Shown: positions 6,133 to 33,017, numbered from the stretch's first letter. The stretch is DNA of 64,000 bases from a virus (IMGVR_UViG_3300034279_001376:44776-108775), one strand, 5' to 3'. Notes: generated from the letters alone by a model not told the origin. Numbers and translations: made by a program.

Positions 6133-7809
6133 TTAATAAACAGGTTCAAAAATCATTTTACCTGTGAATGGATTGATTGGTTTAATAATCAAAGATTTTG
6201 TAGGATCTACCAAACGGTAAGCCTTCAATTTCTTTTCTACATAAACTTCAAAACCCGGAATGTCTTTATTACCGTGATGTGGCCTTCCACCCATATCTTC
6301 GTATGCTAATTTACCATTGGTATAGAAGTGGTTGAAATCCCAGTCAGCACCATAAACCAATTCTTCTACGTTACCACCTTCACCAGAAAGATCATCAATG
6401 ACCATCATATAAGAACTTAAACGGTGTCCATCATACATAGGGTTGTTGTACTCATTAGAAACGATTGGGTCAAATGCTGGTACGTGTGTAAAGTTTAAAA
6501 TACCATATTCCCAACGATAAGACATAAAGTTTTGAGTGTCAAGATACAACTTCTGATTGTCAGCACCTTTGATGTAATCTTTGGCTTGTGTAATCATGTT
6601 TGCTTGTAAGAACCTGTTACGAATTTGGGTACGGATTAACTTGAGTGCACCAGCACCACAACCAATGGTCATTTCCTGAACTCCATAAGGGTCTATTTTG
6701 TCTTTCAAACGAGACAACAAAAGTGCTTCAAGACGCTCAAGAGTGAATTTAGGAATGTTGAAACTTGCGTAAGAGCCCAAGTTAAACTGATGGAACAAAC
6801 CGATTGGCAGATTAACCTCAGTTTTACCATCCACCTTCATTGTGCCACCAGAACCCCAGATTGCGTAATAGTCCACATCACGCTCTACTTCCATCATAGC
6901 AATTGCTTCTACGAGAGGAATGTATGCTTTTTTTACAATGTCTTTTTTAACAAGACCCATTGCTGCTGCTTTGTCAGTCTTGAAGTGGTTCATGTACACA
7001 TCAATAGGACTAGTACCACGCATGTAAGCATCACTTGCTGGTGAACCGGGTGCAAATTGATACATTTCACACACTTGACGGTACTCTTGAAGAGACTTAG
7101 TAATATGGCCTGATACTTGAGAATAAGCAGCATCACGTGTTACACTGAAAGATTTGTGTGCATGACCCTCACCTACGTGCAAGTAATACTCTTTAAATCC
7201 ACTGGTGATAGGCGCAAGACTGTCATAAGTGCTGGAAAACTCCGAACCAATAGAACCAGTCCTAAAATAAATAGTACCTGCTTGCAACATCTCCTTGGGG
7301 AAGTACTTGTACTTTCCGTTAGTAGAATTCATGCGTACAGTGTACACAAAACCTGTTGCTGGATTGCCCGTAATTTCATCAGGTGTAACTACAAGTTCCA
7401 ATGCTAGATGCTTATCTGGGGTGATGATTGCACCATTACCAAAAGAACGCTTGTTAGAAAGGATCTTAAAGGTGGTTCCATCAATACCCGGAGTTTCTGT
7501 GTTGGAAATGTCTTTCAACAACTTGGTAGGCTGAGAAGCAATAGGGTATTGAAAGCGAGCAATATGCCCATCAATCATGGTACGCTTAACACCTTGTTTG
7601 GTATTAATCATGTCCCAAATACCGTTACGCTCCATAAAGCCAGTTGTAATCCAAGGTATAATCATACCCAAATCTGTACTGTCCGAAAAACGGTCAGTTT
7701 GGGAGTTCATGCGCAACAAGTGACCAGTGTCCAAGTTGTGCATTTCGGCATTAAATTCTTTGGTTTGTAAAAAGATGCCATTGTACAAACCCGTCTGTGG
7801 TAAATTCAT
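6133..7809 (-). CDS. putative major capsid protein
   Basis: 558 aa ORF with ATG start, in the canonical position after portal and scaffold. The size is compatible with T4 gp23-like or large HK97-fold capsid proteins. No direct motif proof. Confidence 0.5.
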   Translation of the reverse strand: MNLPQTGLYNGIFLQTKEFNAEMHNLDTGHLLRMNSQTDRFSDSTDLGMIIPWITTGFMERNGIWDMINTKQGVKRTMIDGHIARFQYPIASQPTKLLKDISNTETPGIDGTTFKILSNKRSFGNGAIITPDKHLALELVVTPDEITGNPATGFVYTVRMNSTNGKYKYFPKEMLQAGTIYFRTGSIGSEFSSTYDSLAPITSGFKEYYLHVGEGHAHKSFSVTRDAAYSQVSGHITKSLQEYRQVCEMYQFAPGSPASDAYMRGTSPIDVYMNHFKTDKAAAMGLVKKDIVKKAYIPLVEAIAMMEVERDVDYYAIWGSGGTMKVDGKTEVNLPIGLFHQFNLGSYASFNIPKFTLERLEALLLSRLKDKIDPYGVQEMTIGCGAGALKLIRTQIRNRFLQANMITQAKDYIKGADNQKLYLDTQNFMSYRWEYGILNFTHVPAFDPIVSNEYNNPMYDGHRLSSYMMVIDDLSGEGGNVEELVYGADWDFNHFYTNGKLAYEDMGGRPHHGNKDIPGFEVYVEKKLKAYRLVDPTKSLIIKPINPFTGKMIFEPVY

Positions 7810-11924: not shown

Positions 11925-14900
11925 TTATTTTCTTTTCTTAAAAGGAGAACCCATTTTCATTACTACTTTTTGCTCTCTTTTTACTCCGTTTTCTCTTACT
12001 TGTCTTTGCTCTTTTACTACTAGATTTCGATTGGTGTTTGATCTGGCTGCAATTAAGGCAAATGTAAATGCAACTAATCGGTCTGTGTTTAACTTAGGGG
12101 TGTATTTGAGCATCTCCTCTAGGAGCATAACATCTCTTAGTCTTGTAACTCCATACACGGGAGTTTTTTCCCCGTCTTTCATTATGTTAAGGATAACTTC
12201 ATCAACATAAGCAACTGCAAAATCTAAAGCCTTTTTTTTAAATTCTCCCTCCATCCTAATTCCTATTTCGTTTACTATGGTAGAATTGGGCATCCATTCG
12301 TTTAGAAGGTATATTTCTTTTCTTTTCATAAACATGTGCCCTAAGTCTTTTCCTATGGCCCATTCGTGAAAACCTGTTACGTTTGATTCTACTGCTATTC
12401 GAGCATTGTAATATTTGCAAAGGTTCATGCACGTTTCGTAAGTTTCTTCCCAAGTTGGATACCTACCTGTGTATCTGGCCACTGGAAAATCACTTACCAT
12501 TTGCCCATTAGCATTTACGTGAGCAGCCTTAAATATAACCACTGACATCAAAGACTTAGAAGTAGTGGTGTTGGTTTGTCTGATAGGGTCAATTCCTGCG
12601 TAATATAAACCCCAAGGTGGATTATCTATTGGTAGTTCATCTACTTCTACTACTCCTCTATTATCCTTAGTGGGGTCAACCTTTAGAGTTGAGATAGGTT
12701 TGTTGTACGAGATTTTGTGGGTGATTTTACTGTCAGTAACTTCCAGTTCTACTGTAAGAGGTTTATAGGTTTGACGAAGTAAAGTCTGGTGTTCTTTTAT
12801 GATTCGAGTGGGGAAAATATTATCCTCCCGGATAGCAAAAGCATCTTGAAGATTAAAAGGATGCTGAGATTTCCAAAGAATGTAATTGTCTTTTTCTCTC
12901 CTTTTTTCGTCTTCTAAGTTAAGATAGTACTTGGCTAATTCTATGTCTGAATTTCCATCCTTATCGTAACACTTAATCTGTTTACCATCAACACTTGCTA
13001 TATAATTCCAAAAGTCTGGGAAAAAGAAACAAATCTCTTCATCTGATTCTACCTCTGAGAATATATCTTTGATCCCTAAGAACCCATAACCAGAAGGATT
13101 GAAAGCAATGTTTTCTAATGGCCCACAATCTTTTAATTCACCCACGGCTCCTGATACTGTAATGTGCCCAGTTTTAACACCTCCCATTTTTGTGGCTGCT
13201 TCTGCAAACTCCAACACTTTGTCTAGGTTTGGAGCAATGCCTGCTTCTTCGTGAAAAAGATCAGTTATGTGACCACCTACTGCTTTTGCAGGGTTCTTTT
13301 TAGTGGTGGCTGCCACTAAACGAGATTTTAATCCTACCCATTTTTTCTTTGTGTTAACTGTACCTTCAATTACACTTCTTTTCTGTTCCCATTCTAGTCC
13401 TGCATCTGGTTCAAATGATCTGTACCAAGGAGTATGCTCATTTAGAAAGTTACGGTAGTTAACAGCAAATTTCCAAGAACCATTAGTGTTTACAAAATCT
13501 TCTTCATATCCTATGACTTTACAAACACTCTGCTTAACAAACCATAGTTTTCTCATTAACTTTGACATTAGTTTCAGTGTGTTATGAGTAAGTACATAGT
13601 CTTTAGTAATGTAAGTATGGCTAGGATGGTCAACTTCAATACAAGTGGACTCTTCTTTTCCAAGTTTTACTACATTAATAATACTGTTTTTTGTACGTCT
13701 TTCTCTGTCTAGTATTTGTCTGTATTTCTTACGCCTTAATCTAAACAACCTTATTTTATTTCCAATACGTACCCTCCAAAATATGTGGTCAGTTTCTTTT
13801 GCTGGTGGAAATTCACAACTATGAACTGGAATCCCCAAAGACCTGCATAATTCTACCACATCTGCTTGAAGTCTTTCGGATGTAGTCGTAAGTTGAATAT
13901 CATAACCTTGTTCAGAAATATACCCGTCTGTATCCATAAGCCCCTGTAATAAGGCTATCCGGTTTTCTACACTAGATTTTAAATAAACCTCTGGAATGAA
14001 TTTGTTGTAGCAAGTCGTACCTGTTAAACCTAACTCCTTTAGTTCTCTTAACAAAGGATTTACACCATATTGAGCGTTTACATATTTAGAATCTAAAGAT
14101 GTAAATCTTTTTGCATACATAATAGTGGCCCGGTAATGATTTTCTGCTTGTTCTCTTTCACCTGTATGGTAATCTTCTCCAAGGTCTTCAAGGACTAAAT
14201 CAAATACTTCTTGGTCTGCTGAGGTCAGCCTACATTGAGATTTGGTGAAAGAACCATCACCTAGTAAAGCACCCAAAGCATACGCAGGGATTGGCACAGT
14301 ATTCTCAGGATAAATAATGGGATCAATTTCCTCCACTCCATACCTATAACCTTTATACTCTTTTTTCTCCCCACTTTTTAAAGTTGCTGTTGCTTTATAA
14401 GTTATGCCTTTTTCTAACATTTGCTTCAAAGACAAAACTTTTAAAGTATTCCTTTCTCGCACCTCCCAGAGATGATTAATACCACATCTTACTTTTCTTT
14501 TGTCCAAAAATTCTATTTCGTAAACATCTTTTACTCCTTGTGGATAAACACCTATTACATTGGTTAACTTGCCATCTTTAGAATAAACTTTGTCTCCTAC
14601 TTTTAAATCTCCAATAGGTCTAAAACCATGTTCTGTGAGTACAGGTTCTGAATTAGGTTGTTCAAAGCCTTTCTGGCGGGCTTTGCAGACAGCAGAGTTT
14701 AGATCAGATAATCTAGCAATTTCGTCATACAAATAAAAATGGTAATCTCCATCCCATAATTCTGCAAAATCCTCCCTACCTTTTAATTTATCTACAATAG
14801 GAGTGTAGTTAAGATACCAATAAAAATCTCCGGGTAAATAAAACTCGTTAATGATTACACCTTGACCTATTTTTTTCTTCTCAAAAGCAAAATGTTCTTT

Positions 14901-15113
14901 GTATTGTTCTGAGTCTTCCGAGAAGTCACAATACCTTCCTGTCGTTTGGAATTTAGTGGCAGGTTCAACCCATAGATAAGTGTCATACAAACCATATTTA
15001 CCCGGTTCTTTGAACTGAGATTTTACGTATGCAAGAAACTCCTTGTCATTTTCGTAAATAGTGTATGACCAAACTCCATTTTTAAGAGTAGGTATTCGCT
15101 TTGTTGTAAACAT
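11925..15113 (-). CDS. terL: terminase large subunit (T4 gp17-like) interrupted by an intein
   Basis: 1062 aa. N-terminal ATPase region with ...CKARQKG P-loop remnant. C-terminal nuclease domain with a YAGIDPIRQ RNaseH-like acidic motif. The internal ~360 aa has hallmarks of a homing-endonuclease intein (see intein feature). Confidence 0.8.
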   Translation of the reverse strand: MFTTKRIPTLKNGVWSYTIYENDKEFLAYVKSQFKEPGKYGLYDTYLWVEPATKFQTTGRYCDFSEDSEQYKEHFAFEKKKIGQGVIINEFYLPGDFYWYLNYTPIVDKLKGREDFAELWDGDYHFYLYDEIARLSDLNSAVCKARQKGFEQPNSEPVLTEHGFRPIGDLKVGDKVYSKDGKLTNVIGVYPQGVKDVYEIEFLDKRKVRCGINHLWEVRERNTLKVLSLKQMLEKGITYKATATLKSGEKKEYKGYRYGVEEIDPIIYPENTVPIPAYALGALLGDGSFTKSQCRLTSADQEVFDLVLEDLGEDYHTGEREQAENHYRATIMYAKRFTSLDSKYVNAQYGVNPLLRELKELGLTGTTCYNKFIPEVYLKSSVENRIALLQGLMDTDGYISEQGYDIQLTTTSERLQADVVELCRSLGIPVHSCEFPPAKETDHIFWRVRIGNKIRLFRLRRKKYRQILDRERRTKNSIINVVKLGKEESTCIEVDHPSHTYITKDYVLTHNTLKLMSKLMRKLWFVKQSVCKVIGYEEDFVNTNGSWKFAVNYRNFLNEHTPWYRSFEPDAGLEWEQKRSVIEGTVNTKKKWVGLKSRLVAATTKKNPAKAVGGHITDLFHEEAGIAPNLDKVLEFAEAATKMGGVKTGHITVSGAVGELKDCGPLENIAFNPSGYGFLGIKDIFSEVESDEEICFFFPDFWNYIASVDGKQIKCYDKDGNSDIELAKYYLNLEDEKRREKDNYILWKSQHPFNLQDAFAIREDNIFPTRIIKEHQTLLRQTYKPLTVELEVTDSKITHKISYNKPISTLKVDPTKDNRGVVEVDELPIDNPPWGLYYAGIDPIRQTNTTTSKSLMSVVIFKAAHVNANGQMVSDFPVARYTGRYPTWEETYETCMNLCKYYNARIAVESNVTGFHEWAIGKDLGHMFMKRKEIYLLNEWMPNSTIVNEIGIRMEGEFKKKALDFAVAYVDEVILNIMKDGEKTPVYGVTRLRDVMLLEEMLKYTPKLNTDRLVAFTFALIAARSNTNRNLVVKEQRQVRENGVKREQKVVMKMGSPFKKRK
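13581..14651 (-). mobile_element. intein with LAGLIDADG homing endonuclease inside the terminase ATPase domain (approximate boundaries)
   Basis: Hint-like N-block (EPVLTEHGFRPIGDLKVGDKVYSKDG). Two LAGLIDADG motifs (LGALLGDGSF and LQGLMDTDGYI). C-terminal block ...YVLTHN followed by Thr (+1 extein residue). The N-terminal boundary is uncertain; Ser155 is a candidate first residue. Confidence 0.6.
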
Positions 15114-15661
15114 TAAAAATCAGAGTTTGTATCATCCTCATCAATTGCTATTTTGGATGCACCTTTTCGTTTAATAACTTCTTGCCTGAATGCAGCATCT
15201 ACTGCATTAAAGTTGTTGATAGTGGTAGAGGCGTTGTTTTGAATTTGCTGGATATTTGCCAAGTTTCCATCTTTTCCTCCCACTACTTGAGCAGTTCTCA
15301 GATAATCACCCACATTATCCATTGCTATTTTTAAGGATTGAAGGTATCTTTGCGTGGGTGTTTCACACAATTCCTTCATTTTTTCTGCTGCTTCTATGAG
15401 AGGAATATCAAAAGAAGGGTTGTAATCACCCGGACAGTCTTTCATAACTCTTTCCTTCCTAAAATCTTCGTGAAGCAAAAGATGGGGGCTTTCCGGGTCA
15501 TACATAAAATGAAGATAAGTAAATGCTGATATGGCATTGTTCATACCGTTTACCTCGTCCTTATTTACATAGTAATCGTATGCCTTTCTGAAAGCAGGAA
15601 CTACTAATATAACCTCGTTTACTATGACTCTATTTTCTTTTATTGTTAGTACTTTTTGCAT
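15113..15661 (-). CDS. putative terminase small subunit (positional call) or hypothetical protein
   Basis: 182 aa ORF with ATG start. It ends in an ATGA overlap with the terL start, the classic terS position. No diagnostic motif. Confidence 0.35.
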   Translation of the reverse strand: MQKVLTIKENRVIVNEVILVVPAFRKAYDYYVNKDEVNGMNNAISAFTYLHFMYDPESPHLLLHEDFRKERVMKDCPGDYNPSFDIPLIEAAEKMKELCETPTQRYLQSLKIAMDNVGDYLRTAQVVGGKDGNLANIQQIQNNASTTINNFNAVDAAFRQEVIKRKGASKIAIDEDDTNSDF

Positions 15662-16391
15662 TTTTAAAATGATTTAGTAATGCTATGACTTCTTTCTTTA
15701 GATAATTAACTGGATATGGAACTGACTCAAATGCTTTATTTTCTGAGAATAAAATATGATGAATGGTTAGTCCGTTTGGTTTTAACTTATACCCTGCTTG
15801 TTCTAAAATGTAAGCGTATATGCTTAATTGGAGAGTGTAATGAGTCCCGTTACAATCACCTAAATGTGAAATAGGTGGATACATTTTTTTCTCACTTCGA
15901 GTTTTAGAGTCGGGGTTAAAAACCATAAACCCGCTAAACTTCAATTCTTTATTAGTCTTGAAATCCTCAAGTATAAATGTTTTGTCCTCAAATATCTCTA
16001 CGTAATCTGCTGTACCAGTTAGATCGAACTCAGGCAAGTAAACCATAAGTTCTGGATACACACCCGGTTTTAGATTGGTAATATCGAATGCTTCTTTTAA
16101 GCCATTCCTTTCTTCGTGTTTGAATACTTTTCTTTTTTTGTCCTTGTAGTATTCTTCTTCTCGAAAAGCATGATACGCTTTCCCCCTAACTATTGACTTA
16201 TCATTTTCCTCTTTCCATTCTTTGAGAATTAACTCAGGGGTGGTTTTTCTTTTCTCAGCCACTTTAACAGACATTTTTTCTGCGTCAAAGTGCTCGTGGT
16301 ATTGAGCAAGGAGCCTTGAGACAGAAGTCAATTCTTTCTCAGGGGCATCTCTCCAAAAGTATCTGTGTTCTTCTTCGTTAAATAATAACAT
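15630..16391 (-). CDS. PD-(D/E)xK RecB/Cas4-like nuclease
   Basis: 253 aa. Motif GTADYVEIF...ILEDFKTN fits D...(D/E)xK, and a downstream TLQLSIYAY matches the RecB-family QxxxY motif. Confidence 0.5.
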   Translation of the reverse strand: MLLFNEEEHRYFWRDAPEKELTSVSRLLAQYHEHFDAEKMSVKVAEKRKTTPELILKEWKEENDKSIVRGKAYHAFREEEYYKDKKRKVFKHEERNGLKEAFDITNLKPGVYPELMVYLPEFDLTGTADYVEIFEDKTFILEDFKTNKELKFSGFMVFNPDSKTRSEKKMYPPISHLGDCNGTHYTLQLSIYAYILEQAGYKLKPNGLTIHHILFSENKAFESVPYPVNYLKKEVIALLNHFKNAKSTNNKRK

Positions 16392-16681
16392 TATATAATC
16401 TTGCCTTTAATGATAAAATTGTGTGTAATTCCCCCTACTTTAATCCAAGCAGATTCATCCACCACACCAAATTGATTTGTTTTATCTATGGTAACTATTA
16501 CGTTAAAAGCCTCATCTTTTTCTACTATCCTAGGAAATGAAACAGTGGTGCAACTGCAACTAACCCCTGAATCTTCTATGGTTAAAATGTCTCCGAAGTT
16601 CCTTCCTGCAAAGAAGAATGTACTCGGTGATGTGCTGCTTATAATCTGATTGTGAAGTGTGTTTGTGTTAAATCTTAGCAT
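16391..16681 (-). CDS. hypothetical protein
   Basis: 96 aa ORF with ATG start, in the minus-strand accessory block. Confidence 0.45.
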   Translation of the reverse strand: MLRFNTNTLHNQIISSTSPSTFFFAGRNFGDILTIEDSGVSCSCTTVSFPRIVEKDEAFNVIVTIDKTNQFGVVDESAWIKVGGITHNFIIKGKII

Positions 16682-17061
16682 GGTGGGTTGTCTTTAAATA
16701 GGTTAGTAAACAAATCAGTGTCTGTCAAAGAAACCCCCCATGTCAATCTTGGGGAATTTTTTAGAACATTAAATCCCATAGGATCAGTAGCATAAAGCCA
16801 ATCATTTGCTGAAAGGTTTTCTGCGGAAACAGATTCAATAAAGTTTTTGTGGATTTCTACTTTATTTTCACCAGCGTCATTTAAGTAAAACTCGTACAAT
16901 TTACCATTAATAAGTCCTATGGTTAGTTTTTCTGCCCCATCTCGCCATATTCTTCTAAAAGCAAAATAACCATTTTTTAGCCTTTGGTAATTAAAAGTAG
17001 TTTCTATTGGTTCTTGTATGTTCATAAGTGGGTTTTGATGAACTGGATATTGGTGATACAT
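16675..17061 (-). CDS. DUF2829 / Tad2-like protein, copy 1
   Basis: Motif QRLKNGYFAFRRIW...LSANDWLYATDP matches the remembered DUF2829 signature (A..LK.GK...R..W ... llAdDWe). Start taken at the ATG at 17059-17061 (M28 of the table ORF) to avoid overlapping copy 2. Confidence 0.5.
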   Translation of the reverse strand: MYHQYPVHQNPLMNIQEPIETTFNYQRLKNGYFAFRRIWRDGAEKLTIGLINGKLYEFYLNDAGENKVEIHKNFIESVSAENLSANDWLYATDPMGFNVLKNSPRLTWGVSLTDTDLFTNLFKDNPPC

Positions 17062-17062
17062 A

Positions 17063-17431
17063 TTATTTTGTGTAAGGTTTAAAAAACATTGGTTGAATAG
17101 GCGGGTTTTGTTTACCACTATAATAATGAGAACTAGTAGCACAAATAACTGGTGGTAGATTTTCTTTTACTTTTGTATAACCATAAGGGTCTAAAAAATA
17201 CTCCCAGTCATCCGCTAATAAATCTTCTGTTAATGGGTTCCACACTCTACTAGTAGAAGTTGTAGCAGTATTTTCTGTTTCTAATTCGTGCAATAAAAAA
17301 GTAGAATTTCTTATCCCCAAGAAAAATGGATCCCAAGATTTTCTCTTTGCAAATTGCCCGTTTTTTAATCTTTGAATATCTAATAACATATTATTTGTTT
17401 TTAAGTTTGAATTTTTTCCATTCACTCTCAT
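17063..17431 (-). CDS. DUF2829 / Tad2-like protein, copy 2 (tandem paralog)
   Basis: Motif IQRLKNGQFAKRKSW...LLADDWEYFLDP is clearly paralogous to copy 1. The start may instead be the internal ATG at 17387-17389 (MLLDIQ...). Confidence 0.5.
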   Translation of the reverse strand: MRVNGKNSNLKTNNMLLDIQRLKNGQFAKRKSWDPFFLGIRNSTFLLHELETENTATTSTSRVWNPLTEDLLADDWEYFLDPYGYTKVKENLPPVICATSSHYYSGKQNPPIQPMFFKPYTK

Positions 17432-17669
17432 TTAACATTTCAGGATAACAATTTCCTTCACATGCTTTGCTTGAGTAAAAAAGTTCTGGTGTTTTGCATT
17501 TGCAAATTTTGCAGTGTCCATTGAGGCATTCTGGGGATATTTCTTTGACTAGGATTTCTCTGAGTACAACTTGTTCTCGAATGTAACCCGGAAGTCCTTT
17601 AAATCTGTATCTAAAGTGCCCTTGAAAAAATGCGTAAATATTTTTAAGTGTTATTTGATTTAGTTTCAT
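17391..17669 (-). CDS. small Cys-rich zinc-ribbon-like protein
   Basis: 92 aa with ATG start. CLNGHCKICKCKTPELFYSSKACEGNC gives at least 6 Cys in CxxC-like spacing. Confidence 0.5.
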   Translation of the reverse strand: MKLNQITLKNIYAFFQGHFRYRFKGLPGYIREQVVLREILVKEISPECLNGHCKICKCKTPELFYSSKACEGNCYPEMLNESEWKKFKLKNK

Positions 17670-18052
17670 TATTTTTTCCTTGTTTTAAATGTCCTTCCTC
17701 TGGTAAGAAGGGTGTTTGAGTATTCTAAGTATTTTTCTTGCTCTTCTAGGTTCCTTTCCACGTTTTTATTTAAGACCTTAATCTTGGGAGACAAATCATT
17801 AAATCCTTTTATTTTTCTTCTATTTGAGTTGACCACTTCTTTTAACTTTTTATTAGAGGTAGCCACTGTCCCTAAGTTTAAGAATCTGTATTCAAGTTTG
17901 TCTGTGGTTTCTACTCTTGACTTAAAGTGCTTAAAGTATCCTTTGACAAAACTCCACAATTCATCCTGATCTAGTTCTGGATGTAACTCCTTAATAAGAT
18001 CAAGATATTTAGTTTTTAAAGTTTCTATGGTTAACGTGGTCTTGCTCTTCAT
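17669..18052 (-). CDS. basic hypothetical protein
   Basis: The table ORF starts with TTG at 18055. An ATG follows one codon later (18050-18052). The protein is Lys/Arg-rich. Confidence 0.5.
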   Translation of the reverse strand: MKSKTTLTIETLKTKYLDLIKELHPELDQDELWSFVKGYFKHFKSRVETTDKLEYRFLNLGTVATSNKKLKEVVNSNRRKIKGFNDLSPKIKVLNKNVERNLEEQEKYLEYSNTLLTRGRTFKTRKK

Positions 18053-18422
18053 CAAATGAGTACTGACTAATTAAAACATAAGGAGTGTGTACTAAGTTTA
18101 TGTCAGGGTTTAAAATCGCATCAGGCCAATGCCCATGTATTAGGTTTTCCCTGCGGAGCGCACTTTCATAATTGTTCATAGAATCTGGAGAAGTACTGAT
18201 TCGAGACTCTAAGACTTTCTCCTTATAATCTTTGCCATAGACTATAAAGTAAGCCAAAATGTATTTTTTAGTCTCTGTGGTTCCTTTTTCTTGGAGAATA
18301 ATGTCTAGTTGACGTTTATAAAATTCAACCTTAGACAGTTTTTCTTCCATAAAGTTAACCGAGACTCCCTGATCTATGACTACTTCTACTCCTAGTTTAT
18401 CTTTTAATGGTGTTATTTGCAT
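18009..18422 (-). CDS. hypothetical protein
   Basis: 137 aa ORF with ATG start. Confidence 0.5.
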   Translation of the reverse strand: MQITPLKDKLGVEVVIDQGVSVNFMEEKLSKVEFYKRQLDIILQEKGTTETKKYILAYFIVYGKDYKEKVLESRISTSPDSMNNYESALRRENLIHGHWPDAILNPDINLVHTPYVLISQYSFDEEQDHVNHRNFKN

Positions 18423-18511
18423 TTAATAATTTTTGATTTAAATTAACTGATAAAAGTGGAAACCACAATTTGTAAATAACTTTGTAGTATGTAACTATAC
18501 TTATTTTTGCC

Positions 18512-18862
18512 CTAGTGTTTAACCGTATATGTGACATATCTATTTATGATTTTTTTGAAAATAAAGTTGTTCAAATAAGCAAATGCTTCATCATTCTCTT
18601 GAGAAATAGGTACTCCCACTGCGTGAAGAATGTAAGAAGTAGCATGAATACATTCGTGGTTTAAGTTTGAGAGAAAATTTAAATCAGGAACCAACATGTA
18701 AACAGTATGATTATCCTCATCGTAGTATGTGACTGCACAAGCATTTTTATAGTCTATTGATTTTTTTGTGACTTTTTTAAATACTTCCGCACATTTCTCA
18801 ATAGTGTCTTCCGTGATGAAGACTATTGCAGCATTGTATATTTCTACTTTAAATCTTAGCAT
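18512..18862 (-). CDS. small HExxH zinc-metallopeptidase-like protein
   Basis: 116 aa. NHECIHATSYILH contains HExxH, with a downstream acidic ENDEAFAY segment as a candidate third ligand (SprT/ImmA-like mini-gluzincin architecture). Confidence 0.45.
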   Translation of the reverse strand: MLRFKVEIYNAAIVFITEDTIEKCAEVFKKVTKKSIDYKNACAVTYYDEDNHTVYMLVPDLNFLSNLNHECIHATSYILHAVGVPISQENDEAFAYLNNFIFKKIINRYVTYTVKH

Positions 18863-19358
18863 TTAGGATAATTTTTACACATTCATGCACTTTTTTTGCT
18901 GTACTTTCCGCAAATCCGAATTTGTGAATATTACTTTGTACCCAAGTTTCAAAAGGATTTCCGTATGATTTTCCTGCTCCTATCCAATCAGCCAGCATTT
19001 CGATGATGTAAATGTCGGGCATTTCTAAAGGGCTTGTTATTCCTGATTTATCTACCATGAACCAGTGTTCAGGATGATGAGGATTATTCATGTAATGGTG
19101 ATGCCACGCTAGATCAAAAGCATTAATTACTTCTGGGGTTCTAGGTACTCCTTCTTCTCCAAAGAAATAATCAGCATAACCCTTAAATTCTGCCTTAGAG
19201 TATTTAGACTTGTCATGCTTGTCTAAATTGGACATGAATTTAATTGTGGAGTATTCTAAAGGTAAGTCCAGTTCCATTAAAACCTGACCTGCTTCCTGAA
19301 CAAATCTTATATGACTGTTCACTGTGTTTAAGTAAAGTTCTTCTTTTAAATTTTTCAT
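18849..19358 (-). CDS. His-rich putative metal-dependent hydrolase (HD-like)
   Basis: The table ORF starts with TTG. The first ATG (MKNLKEEL...) is at complement 19356-19358. Motifs LDKHDKSKY and AWHHHYMNNPHHPEHW suggest a metal-binding hydrolase. Confidence 0.45.
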   Translation of the reverse strand: MKNLKEELYLNTVNSHIRFVQEAGQVLMELDLPLEYSTIKFMSNLDKHDKSKYSKAEFKGYADYFFGEEGVPRTPEVINAFDLAWHHHYMNNPHHPEHWFMVDKSGITSPLEMPDIYIIEMLADWIGAGKSYGNPFETWVQSNIHKFGFAESTAKKVHECVKIILNAKI

Positions 19359-19545
19359 GGAGCAAAGGTAAATAAAAAAGTTATTTAGTAGTTTCTTTTT
19401 TATAAGTAATTTTACTGAAAATTGTATTATGGCACAAACGAGCAATAAGGACAACGAAATAATAATTATTAGTACCCAAGGTACTGTAAGTGAAGAAGAT
19501 ACTAAAGCACTTGAAAAAGCATTACAAGAGGCTTTAAAGAAAGAC

Positions 19546-19767
19546 TCAGAGAAGAAGTGATACTACTCTGTGTTTTTTGAGGTATTTCTTTAAAGCCCTT
19601 TTCTTTTTAGGGATTCTGGTTTTGGGTGAGAATGAAAATTCTGCACTACTAATTTTATGTACGTAAGATTCAAGCATTTCTGAGGGTAGCCATAAGGAGT
19701 TGGTGAAATGCTCTCTTGAAACTTTAATGGTAAATGAAGTACCTTGTGTGCCGGGTGTATTTGTCAT
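19546..19767 (-). CDS. hypothetical protein (first gene of minus-strand unit)
   Basis: 73 aa ORF with ATG start, adjacent to the divergent intergenic region. Confidence 0.35.
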   Translation of the reverse strand: MTNTPGTQGTSFTIKVSREHFTNSLWLPSEMLESYVHKISSAEFSFSPKTRIPKKKRALKKYLKKHRVVSLLL

Positions 19768-20301
19768 ATATTTATATTTTTTGCAAAGATAAGGATAATT
19801 CTGAATCTAAAGTGTGTGTTTAAATTTTTTATATAGTTTTTTTGAAAGTTTATATTTGTGTGGGATTAGAGGGTATAAGAAAACCCCTCCCCTGCGTAGA
19901 AAATGAGAAAAAGAATTAGTCTTGTGTGAATTTCAAATAGTCTTCAAAAATTGAGTGGTAGAATGTTAGGGTAGTTGGTACTATCAATGCCGCCCCCCTC
20001 TTAAACTTCAGGAGAGACCCCCTAGTCTTTCAATTCCGAGAGATTAGTTTTGGGGTAAATCAAGGTAGAAAGTAGTAACCTAGAAATAGGAAACGTGGAG
20101 ACAACCACATTTAAAACCTACTTTGATCTCTTCCTCCCTTGCAATTGGGTTATTGCTGTATCGTTACATTAACGAGCATTTTTCTAGTTGAGTGGATCAA
20201 CTGGCGTTATAGAATCCTAATGGATTTGTATATAAGGGCTACTACGTTAAAGTAGCCCAATTTTTCACACTTCACTTTAAATTTTAAAACTATAAGTTAT
20301 T
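19768..20301. promoter_or_regulatory. divergent intergenic control region between the minus late/accessory unit and the plus early unit
   Basis: 534 bp without ORFs, AT-rich with TAnnTTTG-like elements (for example tatatttg near 19846). Contains unusual C-tracts (aaacccctcccctgcg at 19883-19896 and ccgcccccctc...gagaccccct at 19990-20023) and a hairpin at 20236-20258. Confidence 0.4.
20236..20265 (+). terminator. hairpin gggctact-acgttaa-agtagccc followed by TTTTT (plus-strand intrinsic-terminator-like)
   Basis: 8-bp perfect stem with a T5 run, 40 nt upstream of the 20302 start codon. It could end a short leader or sRNA, or act as an attenuator. Confidence 0.4.
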
Positions 20302-20793
20302 ATGGACGAGCAACAAATTGCAGAAGCAGCCGCAGATAAGGCAGCCAAGAAAGGTACACCAGCCTTTGTAGCACCAAAAGAATCCAGTACAACTGGAGAA
20401 CTTTTGAGTGTTGCACCAGTAGAGGAGAAAGGTATTGTGCTTGTGTATGTGCAAGATGAAGATGACACAGTGGTGGTATGTTCCACAAGCATCGCTTATT
20501 GGAAGAAAGTTGGAGCATTCTTTGCTCCGGGTTCTATCCTCAAAGTTGGTTATGAGAAAAGAATTGAGGGAGTCACAAGTTACAAGGATCAGGCTGGTGT
20601 TGTTAAGACACACACTTCAAGTGGTCTAAGTGTCCTCAATGTTACTCCGTACTCGGTCAGTGCTTGGAATCAAGCCAAGGCAAACCGTAAACAGGCTAGT
20701 GATATGGTGCAAATAGTAAACCAAGCACCAGAAACTGTTAATGCTGTATCAAGTTACCTTGCAGCCACTTTTACAACCTCATTAAAGGGTTAA
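20302..20793 (+). CDS. hypothetical protein with anomalously high GC content
   Basis: 163 aa with ATG start. Local GC is visibly higher than the flanks, and three antisense ORFs in the table are artefacts of this. Ala/Val/Ser-rich with no recognised motif. Confidence 0.6.
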   Translation: MDEQQIAEAAADKAAKKGTPAFVAPKESSTTGELLSVAPVEEKGIVLVYVQDEDDTVVVCSTSIAYWKKVGAFFAPGSILKVGYEKRIEGVTSYKDQAGVVKTHTSSGLSVLNVTPYSVSAWNQAKANRKQASDMVQIVNQAPETVNAVSSYLAATFTTSLKG

Positions 20794-20815
20794 GATTAAG
20801 TGCTACCGCATTAAA

Positions 20816-20858
20816 CAAGACCCATTCTACTATGTAGGGTGGGTCTTGTATCTTTTCA
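20816..20858 (+). terminator. rho-independent terminator (caagaccca-N15-tgggtcttg + T-rich tail)
   Basis: 9-bp perfect stem followed by tatcttttcac, 22 nt after the stop of the 20302-20793 gene. Confidence 0.55.
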
Positions 20859-21093
20859 CACACAACACCGTTTTTTTATGACTTGGAAATCAAGAGTCTT
20901 TCATGTTCGCAGAATGTGCGAAGGACTCACAAAGGAGCAAGCAATTGCTACTATTTGTGGTCCATGTTCCCCAAAACATTGGGAGGTAATAATCAATTAC
21001 ATTTACAAGTAACCGTTTTCTATGCGTATTTTCATTCAATTCCCTGATGGAAGTATTGGAACCAATTTAGATTGGGATTTTCAATAAATCCAT

Positions 21094-21125
21094 GCACCTG
21101 TAATCTCTAATGGGGTTACAGGTGC
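21094..21125 (+). ncRNA. perfect 10-bp hairpin (gcacctgtaa-N12-ttacaggtgc) in an ORF-free stretch; possible sRNA 3' end or terminator
   Basis: Lies in the 20860-21320 region, which has no ORF of 60 aa or more on either strand. Followed by ttctttgg. A second hairpin, ttcgca-gaatg-tgcgaa, lies at 20896-20912. Confidence 0.3.
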
Positions 21126-21323
21126 TTCTTTGGTCAGAGGTGCACCACTTTTCTAGGTTATGAAAAATCTAGCGTTTTTAAGTTTCTACCAATGCTATGG
21201 CGTGGTTGTAAGTGAAACTTATTCTTTCAGGTGAAAGTAGCATTTGCTATGAGTAGCCTTTTTATTTTAAGTTGAAAATGAGAGGATAGTCCTGCACAGA
21301 TGAAAATCAGTGTGGGACAAATT

Positions 21324-21740
21324 TTATTTCTTTCTTATTTTATGAGTTGATACAGTTACTTCAAATGTGTATTTCAGCCCAAGAACATCTGTGTGTAACG
21401 AAACCCAACTTTGGTCACGTGAAATTTGATAGGTATTGTTTTCTTTAAAAATTATTAATTTTTTGTCTAACAATTGCTCTATTCCTTTTTTCAAATCCTC
21501 CAAAGAAAGGCTTTTTTGTTCTCCAATGCCTGTTAGCAATCCATCCGTAAAAGTAACACAACCCATTTCAGTGGCATAAGTCTGTGTGAAATGCTTTAAT
21601 ATAGCAATAGCAGGTTTTTCTAATCTTTCATACATTCCTACTATTCTAGCGTAGAACTCCGCAAAATCTTCTAATGAGTCTGCTTTTAAAGAAACTTGCT
21701 TTTGAGTTAGTATGCCTTTAATTTCTGTTTGTTTGTTCAT
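21324..21740 (-). CDS. hypothetical protein (minus-strand gene inside the plus-strand early region)
   Basis: 138 aa ORF with ATG start. Confidence 0.55.
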   Translation of the reverse strand: MNKQTEIKGILTQKQVSLKADSLEDFAEFYARIVGMYERLEKPAIAILKHFTQTYATEMGCVTFTDGLLTGIGEQKSLSLEDLKKGIEQLLDKKLIIFKENNTYQISRDQSWVSLHTDVLGLKYTFEVTVSTHKIRKK

Positions 21741-21807
21741 AATTTTTTATTTAACAAATTTTATAAATAGTTGGTTATCAACCCTTTACTATTTTCAGTG
21801 AGAATTA

Positions 21808-21848
21808 CACTTCGGTTTAAGCGAAGAAACACTTCGGTTTAAGCGAAG
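21808..21848. repeat. tandem direct repeat 2 x 19 bp (cacttcggtttaagcgaag), each unit a small hairpin (cttcg/cgaag)
   Basis: Exact copies at 21808-21826 and 21830-21848, separated by aaa. Located upstream of 21324-21740 and downstream of 21915-22457. Confidence 0.6.
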
Positions 21849-21914
21849 CCATATCTTTGTAAATAGTTGGTTTTCAGCACTTTAGATTTTTGACCCTCTT
21901 ATATCTTTTAGAGA

Positions 21915-22457
21915 CTATAATTTAGATTTTTGTGCTCTTCTGTAATATTCATTTGTAAGGGCCGTTCCTTCAAACAATTTTGCTATGTCTGTGTCAATAA
22001 GTTTTCCACCAAAAGAGAGATAAGGATTTAAAACCCAATACTTTGTGTAGGCAAAGTTTTCTTTAACTACATCAAACTTTCCAAACACGCCTAATTGGTG
22101 GAGTTTGGTAAAAAGTTTTTTGCTGTTCCTATGGTCAATCTTAAAGTAAGCAGAAATTTCCACTTGTGTAATTTCGTCAGACAGAGGTTCTAAAGAATTT
22201 GTGTTAAGTTTTGCCATTCTCGCCAGTTTCAAAACAACTCTTAATTCTAAATCAGTAAGTACTTCCTCAAGAAAATCCCAAGAGTAATCAAAAGATTTCC
22301 TCCAGCCTTTTTCTTCTATACCCCAAGTTGATTTACCTTCTGGTATGTTGTTTGGTTTTACGGATATTTCAGTTGTCAAACCTGTCTCTTTGTTAATCAT
22401 TGCTGGGCTACAATTGTGGGGTAAATTAAATTCTTGTTTATATGTGTCTTTTCGCAT
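21915..22457 (-). CDS. putative winged-helix DNA-binding protein
   Basis: 180 aa. Segment LELRVVLKLARMAKLNTNSLEPLSDEITQVEISAYFKIDHRNSKKLFTKLHQLGVFGKFDVV resembles a wHTH. Opposite orientation to the surrounding early genes. Confidence 0.45.
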   Translation of the reverse strand: MRKDTYKQEFNLPHNCSPAMINKETGLTTEISVKPNNIPEGKSTWGIEEKGWRKSFDYSWDFLEEVLTDLELRVVLKLARMAKLNTNSLEPLSDEITQVEISAYFKIDHRNSKKLFTKLHQLGVFGKFDVVKENFAYTKYWVLNPYLSFGGKLIDTDIAKLFEGTALTNEYYRRAQKSKL

Positions 22458-22575
22458 AAAAATGTTTTAAAATTTAATGCAAAGGTACTTAAAAATGTAC
22501 TAATTCTTTAATCAAACTTATAGTATTTTTCTTAAAACCTCATTCTTACTTCACAAGGGTAAGCATACATTATGT

Positions 22576-22980
22576 ATGAAGGTTGAGTGGGTTAAATTTC
22601 ATTCTCACACTCATTATCTTAGTCATCTAACCCAATGGGGAAGGGGTGGCCAAGATAGTGGCTTAAACTTTAATTTTATGCCTTATTTTTCGTATCCATT
22701 CAAGACTTCTATGACTGGCCTTTGGGACAATGATACAGAAGGTTTATTTGATTTTACTTTAACCACAACGGATGCTACTGGAAAAGTAGTATGTGTAGGT
22801 GGTGGAGTTGGAGTGTCCCAAGACATTATTGACCAACACAAGGAAGACGAAATGGTGTTGGAAGAAACAGTAGAATGGGCAGCAATTACTCAATTAGATG
22901 AGGAAAACTATGCTGCGTATCTTGAGTCTCTTGATGAGCATTGCTGGGAAGATGCAATGGGATTGCATGATCCAGAATAA
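22576..22980 (+). CDS. acidic hypothetical protein
   Basis: 134 aa with ATG start and a Gly-rich centre (CVGGGVGVSQD). Confidence 0.5.
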   Translation: MKVEWVKFHSHTHYLSHLTQWGRGGQDSGLNFNFMPYFSYPFKTSMTGLWDNDTEGLFDFTLTTTDATGKVVCVGGGVGVSQDIIDQHKEDEMVLEETVEWAAITQLDEENYAAYLESLDEHCWEDAMGLHDPE

Positions 22981-23006
22981 AATTCTGTCTTTGTTAGTAT
23001 AATCCT

Positions 23007-23414
23007 TTAGTCAGGGAGTGAGAATAATTTAATAGTTATTTTCACTCCTTTCTCTAAATTATCTTTGTATGGAATGAAACGAAGATTTCTTAAATCACTG
23101 CATATTTCTGCTGGTATACCTAACTTGAAACATTTGCAAATAGGAAATACATGATCCAAATGGTAATTTTTCCAACCTCTTTTTTCATAATTAGGTAAAG
23201 ATTTCAAGTCTTGCAATTCCGTAAGTTTCCAAACCAATTCTTTATATTGTTTTTTAGTAAACCTAATACCTTTTTTATTTGAGTTTGTTTTAACAAATGC
23301 TTTTATCTCTTTGAAACCCAGAACCCCATAAATGTTTATCAAATGCTTTTTAGCAGACTTTAACATTTCTGGATTTTTTGAGTAAAATTGTTTTTCTAAT
23401 TCTAAATTCGTCAT
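23007..23414 (-). CDS. HNH homing endonuclease
   Basis: 135 aa. YHLDHVFPICKCF...NLRFIPYKDNLEKG is a canonical HNH motif (H-x-D-H ... N ... N/K). Free-standing on the opposite strand to its neighbours. Confidence 0.75.
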   Translation of the reverse strand: MTNLELEKQFYSKNPEMLKSAKKHLINIYGVLGFKEIKAFVKTNSNKKGIRFTKKQYKELVWKLTELQDLKSLPNYEKRGWKNYHLDHVFPICKCFKLGIPAEICSDLRNLRFIPYKDNLEKGVKITIKLFSLPD

Positions 23415-23615
23415 ATTCTTTAAACCATTTAAATTAGAAAAGGTTTAATTATTTATAAAGAGTTCAGAATAAAATTTGTTTCAATCATCTAGCATTTTGT
23501 CATTTGCCTCAAAAAAAGAGTAATAAAACAAAATAAAATATTGGGTTTATTAGCAAAGACAGAATTTATTTGCTTTAGATTATGCAGTCTCAAAGACAAA
23601 TCGTATTTTTGCATT

Positions 23616-24104
23616 ATGAAAATTCAAGATAGAATCAAACTGCAAGGGCTTCAAAACCCTTTTATGACCAATACAACCATTCAATGTAAAACCTATAAGG
23701 TGATTAACAAAATGGGGAATTTGGCAGACATAACCGAAGGTATTTTTGTGGGGGATGTGTCCGAGATTAAGCAAAGTGTGATCGTGGATTCAGAAGAACA
23801 CTCAAAAATATTCACAAAAGCAGGTTATAGGCTTCATGTAAGTGCCTTATCACCTCAAGGAAGGCTCTTATTTTTATGGCTGTTGTACGAAATTGATTAT
23901 GCGGAAGATTTCCTAGAACTGAATAAAAGACGGTTTATAGCGGAATGCACGTCGAATTACAAGCATTTATCAGCAGGGATCAAATCTCTTATGGATGCTT
24001 CTATAATTATACCTACAACAGTTGAGAACGTGTATTGGATAAACCCTATTTTCTTCTTTAAAGGAGATAGAGTTAAGAAATACCCAAACAATATTACGAC
24101 ATAG
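23616..24104 (+). CDS. hypothetical protein (possible regulator)
   Basis: The table ORF 23541-24104 initiates at TTG. The first ATG (MKIQDRIKLQGL...) is at 23616. Confidence 0.5.
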   Translation: MKIQDRIKLQGLQNPFMTNTTIQCKTYKVINKMGNLADITEGIFVGDVSEIKQSVIVDSEEHSKIFTKAGYRLHVSALSPQGRLLFLWLLYEIDYAEDFLELNKRRFIAECTSNYKHLSAGIKSLMDASIIIPTTVENVYWINPIFFFKGDRVKKYPNNITT

Positions 24105-30951: not shown

Positions 30952-31146
30952 AACAGAGACGAAGTTTGTCTTATACTTCGGGTATAAGCAAACACCAGTG
31001 AGGTGCAAACACCCGTTTATCAGTTTCTACCCAATAGGTTGTAAGTGAAACTGTACTAGCCCCGTTCATATAGCAGACAATATGCTCCTCTTCTAAGGGA
31101 GTCACAGGGGTGCAAATCCTCTACGGGGTACTAAATTATTAAAATT

Positions 31147-32877: not shown

Positions 32878-32947
32878 AGGGAGTTAGCCTTAAAGTAAAG
32901 GCCAGTATTTGCTATACGGTATGCTGGTTCAAATCCAGTACTCTCTC
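32878..32947 (+). tRNA. tRNA-like element (possible degenerate tRNA, anticodon-loop reading UGC)
   Basis: Acceptor agggagt/actctct (7 bp including one G-U). U8. D-stem gcct/aggc. T-arm gctgg-TTCAAAT-ccagt. The anticodon stem has an A-G mismatch, the variable loop is only 3 nt and position 37 is a pyrimidine, so it is non-canonical. Confidence 0.25.
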
Positions 32948-33017
32948 CCGAAACGGGTTGGTAACCTAGGACTGCTGTAAAGTGGGACTAGGATTTTTAA
33001 CATTTAACATTTAAAAA

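Follow-up and report, generated by a model that had tools for sequence, protein, structure and literature searches.

What is a run of small, tightly packed genes doing between the packaging genes and the divergent control region of a phage, and how many of those genes belong to the conflict with the host? The question is raised by ten minus-strand open reading frames (ORFs) that occupy positions 15630-19767 of IMGVR_UViG_3300034279_001376:44776-108775, a viral stretch of 64,000 nucleotides that was analysed as a whole and is referred to here as the window. A sequence-only reading had taken the entire block for an anti-defence or host-takeover island. Comparison with related phages indicates that this interpretation is half right, and that the region is only in part such an island. 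At a probability of roughly 0.6, we regard it as the two-layer leader of a crAss-type leftward operon, in which a conserved backbone is combined with exchangeable cargo that is probably directed against host immunity.

Genes were named P1-P10 counting away from the large terminase gene (TerL), with g182 denoting the gene of 182 amino acids (aa) between P1 and TerL. In the arrangement proposed here, the operon would run leftward from the leader into TerL, the portal, and the major capsid protein. Its first layer would consist of the backbone genes P7, P6, P5, P2, P1, and g182, followed by TerL; its second layer would be a set of slots between backbone genes, with cargo exchanged among related phages. 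The features of the region, which include every item that the sequence-only reading had listed for a block of small minus-strand genes, are as follows.

15113-15661, minus strand: g182, 182 aa, flanking backbone gene directly upstream of TerL
15630-16391, minus strand: P1, 253 aa, PD-(D/E)xK nuclease, phrog_298 "exonuclease" (4.8e-19), backbone
16391-16681, minus strand: P2, 96 aa, DUF1573 immunoglobulin-like beta-sandwich, backbone
16675-17061, minus strand: P3, 128 aa, degenerate P4 paralogue, slot A cargo
17063-17389, minus strand: P4, 108 aa, divergent, shortened Tad2-like protein (DUF2829, PF11195), slot A cargo
17391-17669, minus strand: P5, 92 aa, Cys-rich and probably zinc-binding, phrog_13610 (1.7e-16), backbone
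17669-18052, minus strand: P6, 127 aa, basic, isoelectric point 9.9, backbone
18009-18422, minus strand: P7, 137 aa, no family match, first backbone gene
18423-18537, minus strand: insertion of about 115 nucleotides (nt), holding a 46-aa ORF (18397-18537) that is probably spurious
18512-18862, minus strand: P8, 116 aa, HECIH motif, phrog_1365, slot 0 cargo
18849-19358, minus strand: P9, 169 aa, DUF5662 (1.8e-32), slot 0 cargo
19359-19428, no strand: divergent intergenic region, 70 bp, conserved, with a -7 box TACCTTTG at 19370-19363 on the minus strand
19429-19560, plus strand: 43-aa gene between P10 and P9, product MAQTSNKDNEIIIISTQGTVSEEDTKALEKALQEALKKDSEKK
19546-19767, minus strand: P10, 73-aa basic protein, slot 0 cargo, with its own -7 box TATCTTTG at 19791-19784

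The separation into layers comes from synteny. Relatives were drawn from a large protein collection by means of the TerL C-extein, which gave 137 TerL relatives at E<=1e-20, and the neighbourhoods of ten relatives were compared by BLASTP, clustering, tblastn, and family hidden Markov models (HMMs). TerL identity to the window is 93% for L003 and L004, 67% for L005 and L006, 65% for L007, and 60% for L008 and L009; the remoter relatives are L016 (46%), L010 (45%), and L015 (39%). Across this sample the genes follow one fixed order, P7, P6, P5, [slot A], P2, [slot B], P1, [slot C], g182, [slot D], TerL, and portal, and the order of the backbone is unchanged in every relative from 93% to 45% TerL identity. 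P1, P2, P5, P6, and P7 are collinear in eight or nine of the 10. In L015, at 39% identity, g182 and P1 still match strongly (119 and 130 bits), and P7 and P6 are weak and correctly placed. For these five backbone genes, the ratio of non-synonymous to synonymous substitution rates (dN/dS) is 0.035-0.12, which indicates strong purifying selection; this ratio and those given below were computed against the closest relative (L004) and are rough, because dS is near saturation. Since P1, P2, P5, P6, and P7 are conserved in order across the relatives, they are counted as backbone and not as island cargo; a virion role is shown for none of them.

The slots behave differently. Slot 0 lies upstream of P7 and adjoins the strand-switch region, and slot A lies between P5 and P2. 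In the window, slot 0 holds P10, P9 (DUF5662), and P8 (HExxH), and slot A holds the tandem P4/P3 pair; all five genes are confined to the relatives with 93% TerL identity, the one exception being a partial P8-like gene in L005. P10 is found in L004 only (87% identity, dN/dS 0.12) and is missing from L003. Where the window has a single DUF5662 copy, both L003 (5356-6364) and L004 (5146-6154) carry a tandem pair, with 44% identity between its two members, and a GIY-YIG homing endonuclease stands just upstream of the pair. With this endonuclease, a second DUF5662 gene, and the absence of P10 from L003, slot 0 differs even among the 93% relatives. What survives of the proposed island is therefore the variable set P3, P4, P8, P9, and P10, set within a fixed collinear backbone to which the label does not extend.

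What occupies the slots in other phages points toward their use. When the contents of relatives' slots were assigned from Pfam matches above the gathering score, L005 proved to carry Acb3 in slot 0 (37.8 bits), and L016 carries it in slot A, the slot that holds the Tad2-like pair in the window. In L007, slot 0 has a canonical Tad2 domain (62.3 bits, with 2.6e-9 to ModTad2 in PDB 9eib); in L008, an Acb2/Tad1-hairpin protein (53.9 bits) occupies slot D. Other slot cargo includes an AlkB-like 2-oxoglutarate-Fe(II) oxygenase in L005 and PhoH in L015. A recognised anti-signalling family is present in the region in 7 of 11 genomes, the window included. By comparison, 62 other window ORFs of at least 90 aa matched no Acb, Tad, or Acr family in Pfam. 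Searches of NCBIfam and PADLOC gave no meaningful matches. The pattern of slot cargo resembles the fixed-position anti-defence loci described for phages, namely the anti-Gabija locus of SPbeta-like phages and anti-CRISPR loci, in which related phages carry differing anti-defence genes at one position (Yirmiya et al., 10.1101/2023.05.01.538930). It differs in that the slots are interleaved with backbone genes inside a packaging operon instead of forming a separate early-gene island. The cargo could be envisioned as countering nucleotide-signal immunity of the Thoeris, CBASS, or Pycsar type, with P4 acting as a signal sponge and the DUF5662 protein P9 perhaps hydrolysing a cyclic or ADP-ribose-derived signal. 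Plausible counter-defence candidates in the window are P4 (with P3), P9, and P8.

The Tad2-like pair can be compared with a known anti-signalling protein. P4 scores 29.0 bits against PF11195 (gathering score 25) and matches phrog_643 at 1.1e-7. SPO1 Tad2 holds glycocyclic ADP-ribose (gcADPR) through W25 and W73, and N26 and D79 add polar contacts (10.1101/2023.05.01.538930); residues W19, W50, and D56 of P4 align with W25, W73, and D79. The segment RLKNGQFAKRKSW19 aligns to the N-terminal helix and beta1 of Tad2, and VW50NPLTED56LLADDW62 to its C-terminal motif. The likeness of P4 to Tad2 (SPO1 gp34.65, PDB 8SME; ModTad2, PDB 9EIB) thus lies in a passing PF11195 score together with the LKxGxxxxRxxW and W-P-x3-D-LLAxDW motifs. 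P3 had also been called Tad2-like; it has no Pfam match, and is related to P4 as a paralogue at 30% identity (E 2e-7) that retains the N-terminal LKxGxxxxRxxW motif and the first Trp. Both genes are found in L003 and L004 only, P4 at 62% identity (dN 0.30, dN/dS 0.31) and P3 at 64% (dN 0.24, dN/dS 0.25). The other genes of the block have dN of 0.04-0.10 at comparable dS against L004, and dN/dS of 0.035-0.12, so that non-synonymous evolution of P3 and P4 runs at 3-7 times that of their neighbours, and their dN/dS is the highest in the region. Tad2 homologues are able to bind His-ADPR, cUMP/cCMP, and N7-cADPR besides gcADPR (PMC12393519), and given this range a protein as divergent as P4 could have another ligand.

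For P9, the sequence-only proposal of a His-rich HD-like hydrolase is borne out at the level of predicted fold and motif. P9 scores 112.5 bits against PF18907 (DUF5662; gathering score 27). Conservation among 47 sequences is complete for H48, D49, H88, H94, H95, and D124 and almost complete for H16, a set consistent with the H...HD...D metal-ligand pattern of the binuclear type. The structure model predicts an HD fold with confidence, closest to cyclic-dinucleotide phosphodiesterases. Relative to the HD-GYP/PgpH enzymes (PDB 9rbz, 3tm8, 4s1b, 4r8z), P9 has only 7-15% identity, lacks the GYP motif, and has neither sensor nor membrane domains; Foldseek finds nothing, and the DUF5662 profile has no significant match among PDB sequences. 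A full-text literature search returned no paper mentioning DUF5662. We hypothesize that P9 degrades a signal.

P8 may be described as zincin-like by its motif only. All 61 homologues retain H69, E70, H73, and E92, and in the model the HExxH motif and the Glu fall on predicted helices 63-81 and 88-115. The invariant Glu lies 19 residues past the second His, on the next helix and within an N-D-E-A motif, and this spacing resembles that of thermolysin. An invariant HExxH with a downstream Glu is what P8 shares with the gluzincins (thermolysin-type enzymes and minigluzincins); its profile has no significant match among PDB sequences.

The backbone asks for a different explanation, and P1 is the gene for which it can be traced furthest. 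The proposal of a RecB-like PD-(D/E)xK nuclease holds: seven family members share D129, D143-x-K145, and Q188xxxY192 without exception, and the combination of D...(D/E)xK with QxxxY is that of the RecB/Cas4/lambda-exonuclease branch. P1 is 51-58% identical where TerL is 60-67% identical, and its dN/dS is 0.035. Its tblastn matches reach annotated PD-(D/E)XK nucleases of crAss-like phages, and the family profile scores 81 bits on crAssphage KP06_gp83 and 79 bits on crAss002 gp4; against PDB the profile found nothing significant. P1 sits in the structural block upstream of TerL, as does PDDEXK_a, which was reported to be "encoded within the structural block" of crAss-like phages by Yutin et al. 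2021, who also saw short unique gene blocks and suspected them of encoding anti-CRISPRs (PMC7886860). On these matches P1 is identified as the Crassvirales PDDEXK_a, conserved across the order. In L010 (7188-8987) and L016 (6851-8659), the nuclease is about 600 aa long and carries an intein at approximately the D-x-K catalytic motif; these inteins are homologous to the one in the window's TerL (26-27% identical). Intein insertion is typical of essential genes. Order-wide conservation at the same position, together with the inteins of L010 and L016, argues that P1 is not island cargo. It would more likely serve phage DNA processing, whether in recombination or in trimming or resolving DNA before packaging, than an attack on host defences.

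The wider layout is shared as well. p-crAssphage (Carjivirus communis KP06_gp78-gp87, with gp83 as the nuclease) has the homologous nuclease in the same position. In p-crAssphage, crAss002 (gp1-gp7, with gp4 as the nuclease), and this phage alike, a divergent RepL-like gene is followed by small genes, the PD-(D/E)XK nuclease, further small genes, TerL, and the portal, which a single gene separates from the major capsid protein. The small genes other than the nuclease differ, in that those of crAssphage and crAss002 have no significant similarity to those found here, and crAssphage places lysozyme and membrane protein lysis genes between nuclease and TerL where this phage has g182 alone. HMMs of P2, P5, P6, P7, and g182 gave no convincing matches to the crAssphage and crAss002 neighbours, and for this reason P1 alone is called order-wide.

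The remaining backbone genes include three that the sequence-only reading had passed over, namely P2, P7, and g182. P2 is a marginal member of PF07610 (DUF1573; 27.5 bits, gathering score 26.1), found in 9 of 10 relatives directly upstream of the nuclease or one slot away, and its orthologues in L005, L007, L008, L010, and L016 carry unmarked precomputed DUF1573 matches. P5, rightly singled out as Cys-rich, has a six-Cys pattern (C-x5-C-x2-C-x-C...C-x3/4-CYP) that is kept across the family, and it occurs in 9 of 10 relatives, counting an uncalled copy in L003. P6, whose basic character was also correctly noted, stands beside P7 in eight relatives, with weaker conservation in the more distant ones. 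P7 is present in nine relatives, with a weak match in L015; the best PDB match of its profile is a MarR-family regulator over the winged helix-turn-helix region (E 0.38, not significant), and P7 is possibly a winged-helix DNA-binding protein. g182 is present in all 10 relatives at 28-90% identity, directly or nearly directly upstream of TerL. It ends in a conserved acidic tail (DEDDxxDF; IDEDDT-NSDF), which resembles the C-terminal tip of single-stranded DNA-binding protein, and family searches returned a weak phrog_16390 match only. Profiles of g182 and P7 had no significant match in PDB, and for P5, P7, and g182 no PDB or Pfam relative was found. We consider that g182 may be the small terminase or another partner in packaging, and the composition of P5, P7, and g182, with their position beside the nuclease and TerL, suggests a DNA-binding or DNA-processing role for the set.

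How might such an operon be expressed? From P9 to TerL the only gap above a few bases is one of about 90 nt between P8 and P7. In Bacteroidetes the -7 box is TAnnTTTG, as established from Bacteroides promoters. Within 15000-19800, the minus strand has this box only at 19791, at 19370, and once inside P1, which places boxes 24 nt upstream of P10 and 12 nt upstream of P9. In L004, the 70-bp stretch that separates P9 from the 43-aa gene is nearly identical. These positions suggest that 19359-19428 is probably the start of a P9-to-TerL transcription unit, and host-type promoters there would allow early expression of the cargo. The position of so short a box was used solely as a hint: the combined -33/-7 Bacteroidetes pattern shows no enrichment, with 8 occurrences against 6.3 expected, and a sigma-70 scan, which found 25 sites against 34.6 in shuffled sequence, is uninformative for an AT-rich and probably Bacteroidota-infecting phage.

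The P8-P7 junction sets this phage apart from its nearest relatives. The insertion of about 115 nt at 18423-18537 follows immediately on the ancestral start codon of P7; alignment shows that L003 and L004 lack it, and P7 here starts at a new ATG. No second copy of the insertion was found in the window or in the relatives' loci. It bears promoter-like plus-strand motifs (TTTG...TAnnTTTG, 18481-18509) that would read antisense. The 46-aa ORF at 18397-18537 was considered as a gene and rejected, as it lies across this phage-specific insertion and has no tblastn match in relatives. The 43-aa plus-strand gene stays open in L003 and L004, where an indel of 9 nt preserves the frame, and its differences are biased toward third codon positions (2/4/19 and 5/3/13 at positions one, two, and three). 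Its 3' end overlaps that of P10 by 15 nt.

Several observations weigh against an anti-immunity role for the cargo. P4 is a marginal Tad2 member: its core is shortened by about 18 residues, with 30 residues between the two Trp where SPO1 Tad2 has 47, and falls short of the complete Tad2 core in the beta2-beta3/alpha2 dimer-interface region. D20 replaces N26, and a 45-residue C-terminal tail follows. Here, too, the protein is encoded as one of a tandem pair, the second member of which, P3, carries E and N at the positions of W73 and D79 and so lacks equivalents of both. An hhalign comparison of the P3/P4 family with solved Tad2 covered the last 15 residues only, at 20% probability, and neither P4 nor the P3/P4 profile had a significant match among PDB sequences. 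The family phrog_643 is annotated "transcriptional regulator". For P8, the mini-metalloprotease proposed earlier keeps its HExxH motif and loses its likeness to known zincins, as its structure matched no peptidase. The cargo is contiguous and on the same strand with late structural genes, although anti-defence genes are usually early, and the dN/dS ratios that set P3 and P4 apart are rough, as noted.

A rival reading is that of a locus with no anti-defence function at all, in which the variable genes would have ordinary accessory roles: P9 would be a nucleotide-pool HD hydrolase, P8 a maturation or lysis-related peptidase, and the DUF2829 pair small regulators, with slot turnover driven by homing endonucleases. 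The presence of GIY-YIG homing endonucleases in slot 0 of L003, L004, L008, and L016 fits such a picture, as do the regulator label of phrog_643, the AlkB-like oxygenase and PhoH among the slot contents, and the contiguity with the late operon; remoter DUF5662 genes, moreover, sit among the replication or early genes of other phages. We nevertheless think this rather unlikely, because three anti-signalling families appear above gathering score in four independent relatives at exactly these slots, P4 retains both pocket tryptophans and the Asp of Tad2, and P3 and P4 are the fastest-evolving proteins in the region. The opposite extension, that the slots form a dedicated arsenal against nucleotide signals and hold families so far unrecognised in that role, with DUF5662 as a new class of phage HD-domain phosphodiesterase destroying cyclic-nucleotide or ADP-ribose-derived signals, the phrog_1365 zincin cleaving a defence protein, and the Tad2-like pair as a hetero-oligomeric sponge of new ligand specificity, seems to us more doubtful still. 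The original proposal, in which the anti-defence or host-takeover island spans all 4 kb and counts the nuclease, Zn-binding, and basic proteins among its effectors, has in its favour the small size and mostly unannotated state of the genes, their place beside the strand-switch region, and a Tad2-like gene, and the Acb3, Tad2, and Acb2/Tad1 genes of relatives in the same region would agree with it. The synteny analysis largely refutes it, through the order and constraint of P1, P2, P5, P6, and P7 and the Crassvirales-wide position of P1 with its inteins, and we hold it to be improbable. Least credible of all is that the block is partly an annotation artefact, in that some of its small ORFs are not genes. 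The 46-aa ORF, with no homologue, is such a case, and the reading holds for that ORF only: all ten named genes, P10 included, have orthologues in the closest relative at dN/dS of 0.035-0.31, which marks them as real genes, and most have family-level matches.

The two-layer leader, with its backbone and exchangeable cargo, therefore remains our preferred reading, and it is set in a genome of otherwise recognisable plan. The window belongs, on the evidence of its capsid, TerL, RepL-like, and portal matches and the lack of a near relative in GenBank phages or IMG/VR, to a distant crAss-like phage of about 131 kb. The same phage is present on two metagenome contigs, one of 131 kb from ENA and one from JGI, and the block genes were called independently on both. 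The major capsid protein (6133-7809, minus strand) matches PF23898, Crass_capsid; TerL (11925-15113, minus strand) is 1062 aa long and carries a LAGLIDADG intein; the RepL-like gene is plus-strand (23541-24104); and the portal is remotely similar to those of Cellulophaga phi17:2/phi4:1 and gut crAss-like phages. A near-identity DNA search of GenBank phages gave no match to the window, and scans of IMG/VR with g182 and with the TerL C-extein found no relatives.

Other features of the window can be noted in passing. The TerL intein has its LAGLIDADG/Hint domains at approximately residues 160-520 (PF14528, PF05204, PF05203), whereas in L003 and L004 TerL, at 93% identity, has 701 aa and no intein. 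The control region at 19800-24100 consists of alternating strands and not a single switch, with plus-strand genes at 20302-20793, 22576-22980, and the RepL-like 23541-24104, and minus-strand genes at 21324-21740, 21915-22457, and 23007-23414 (phrog_5104, weakly endonuclease VII-like). Two long perfect hairpins on the plus strand, 20815-20849 and 21094-21125, with stems of 16 and 14 bp followed by T-rich tracts, lie in this strand-switch region downstream of the gene at 20302-20793; they are probably terminators that insulate oppositely oriented units. Further along the plus strand are genes for tRNA-Arg(TCT) and tRNA-Ala(TGC), at 31059-31131 and 32878-32949. Pfam matches within 24000-63100 on the same strand include PolA with a 3'-5' exonuclease, SF1 helicases, glucosaminidase, MYG1 exonuclease, GP17 superinfection-exclusion, Band_7/SPFH, EAD11 (effector-associated domain 11), and a ProQ-C-like domain.

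The crAss-like phages are abundant in Bacteroidota, and their small genes are almost all unannotated. At this locus the conserved genes upstream of TerL, which probably act in DNA processing or regulation, are now separated from exchangeable cargo. A general caution follows for similar loci: one anti-defence match among small unknown genes should not label the whole run an island. Testable candidates can be named in DUF5662, the widespread phrog_1365 HExxH family, and the shortened Tad2 variant. For the lineage as a whole, the comparison offers a positional rule, by which anti-defence genes may be sought in three places: the P5-P2 interval, the stretch upstream of P7, and the position immediately upstream of TerL.

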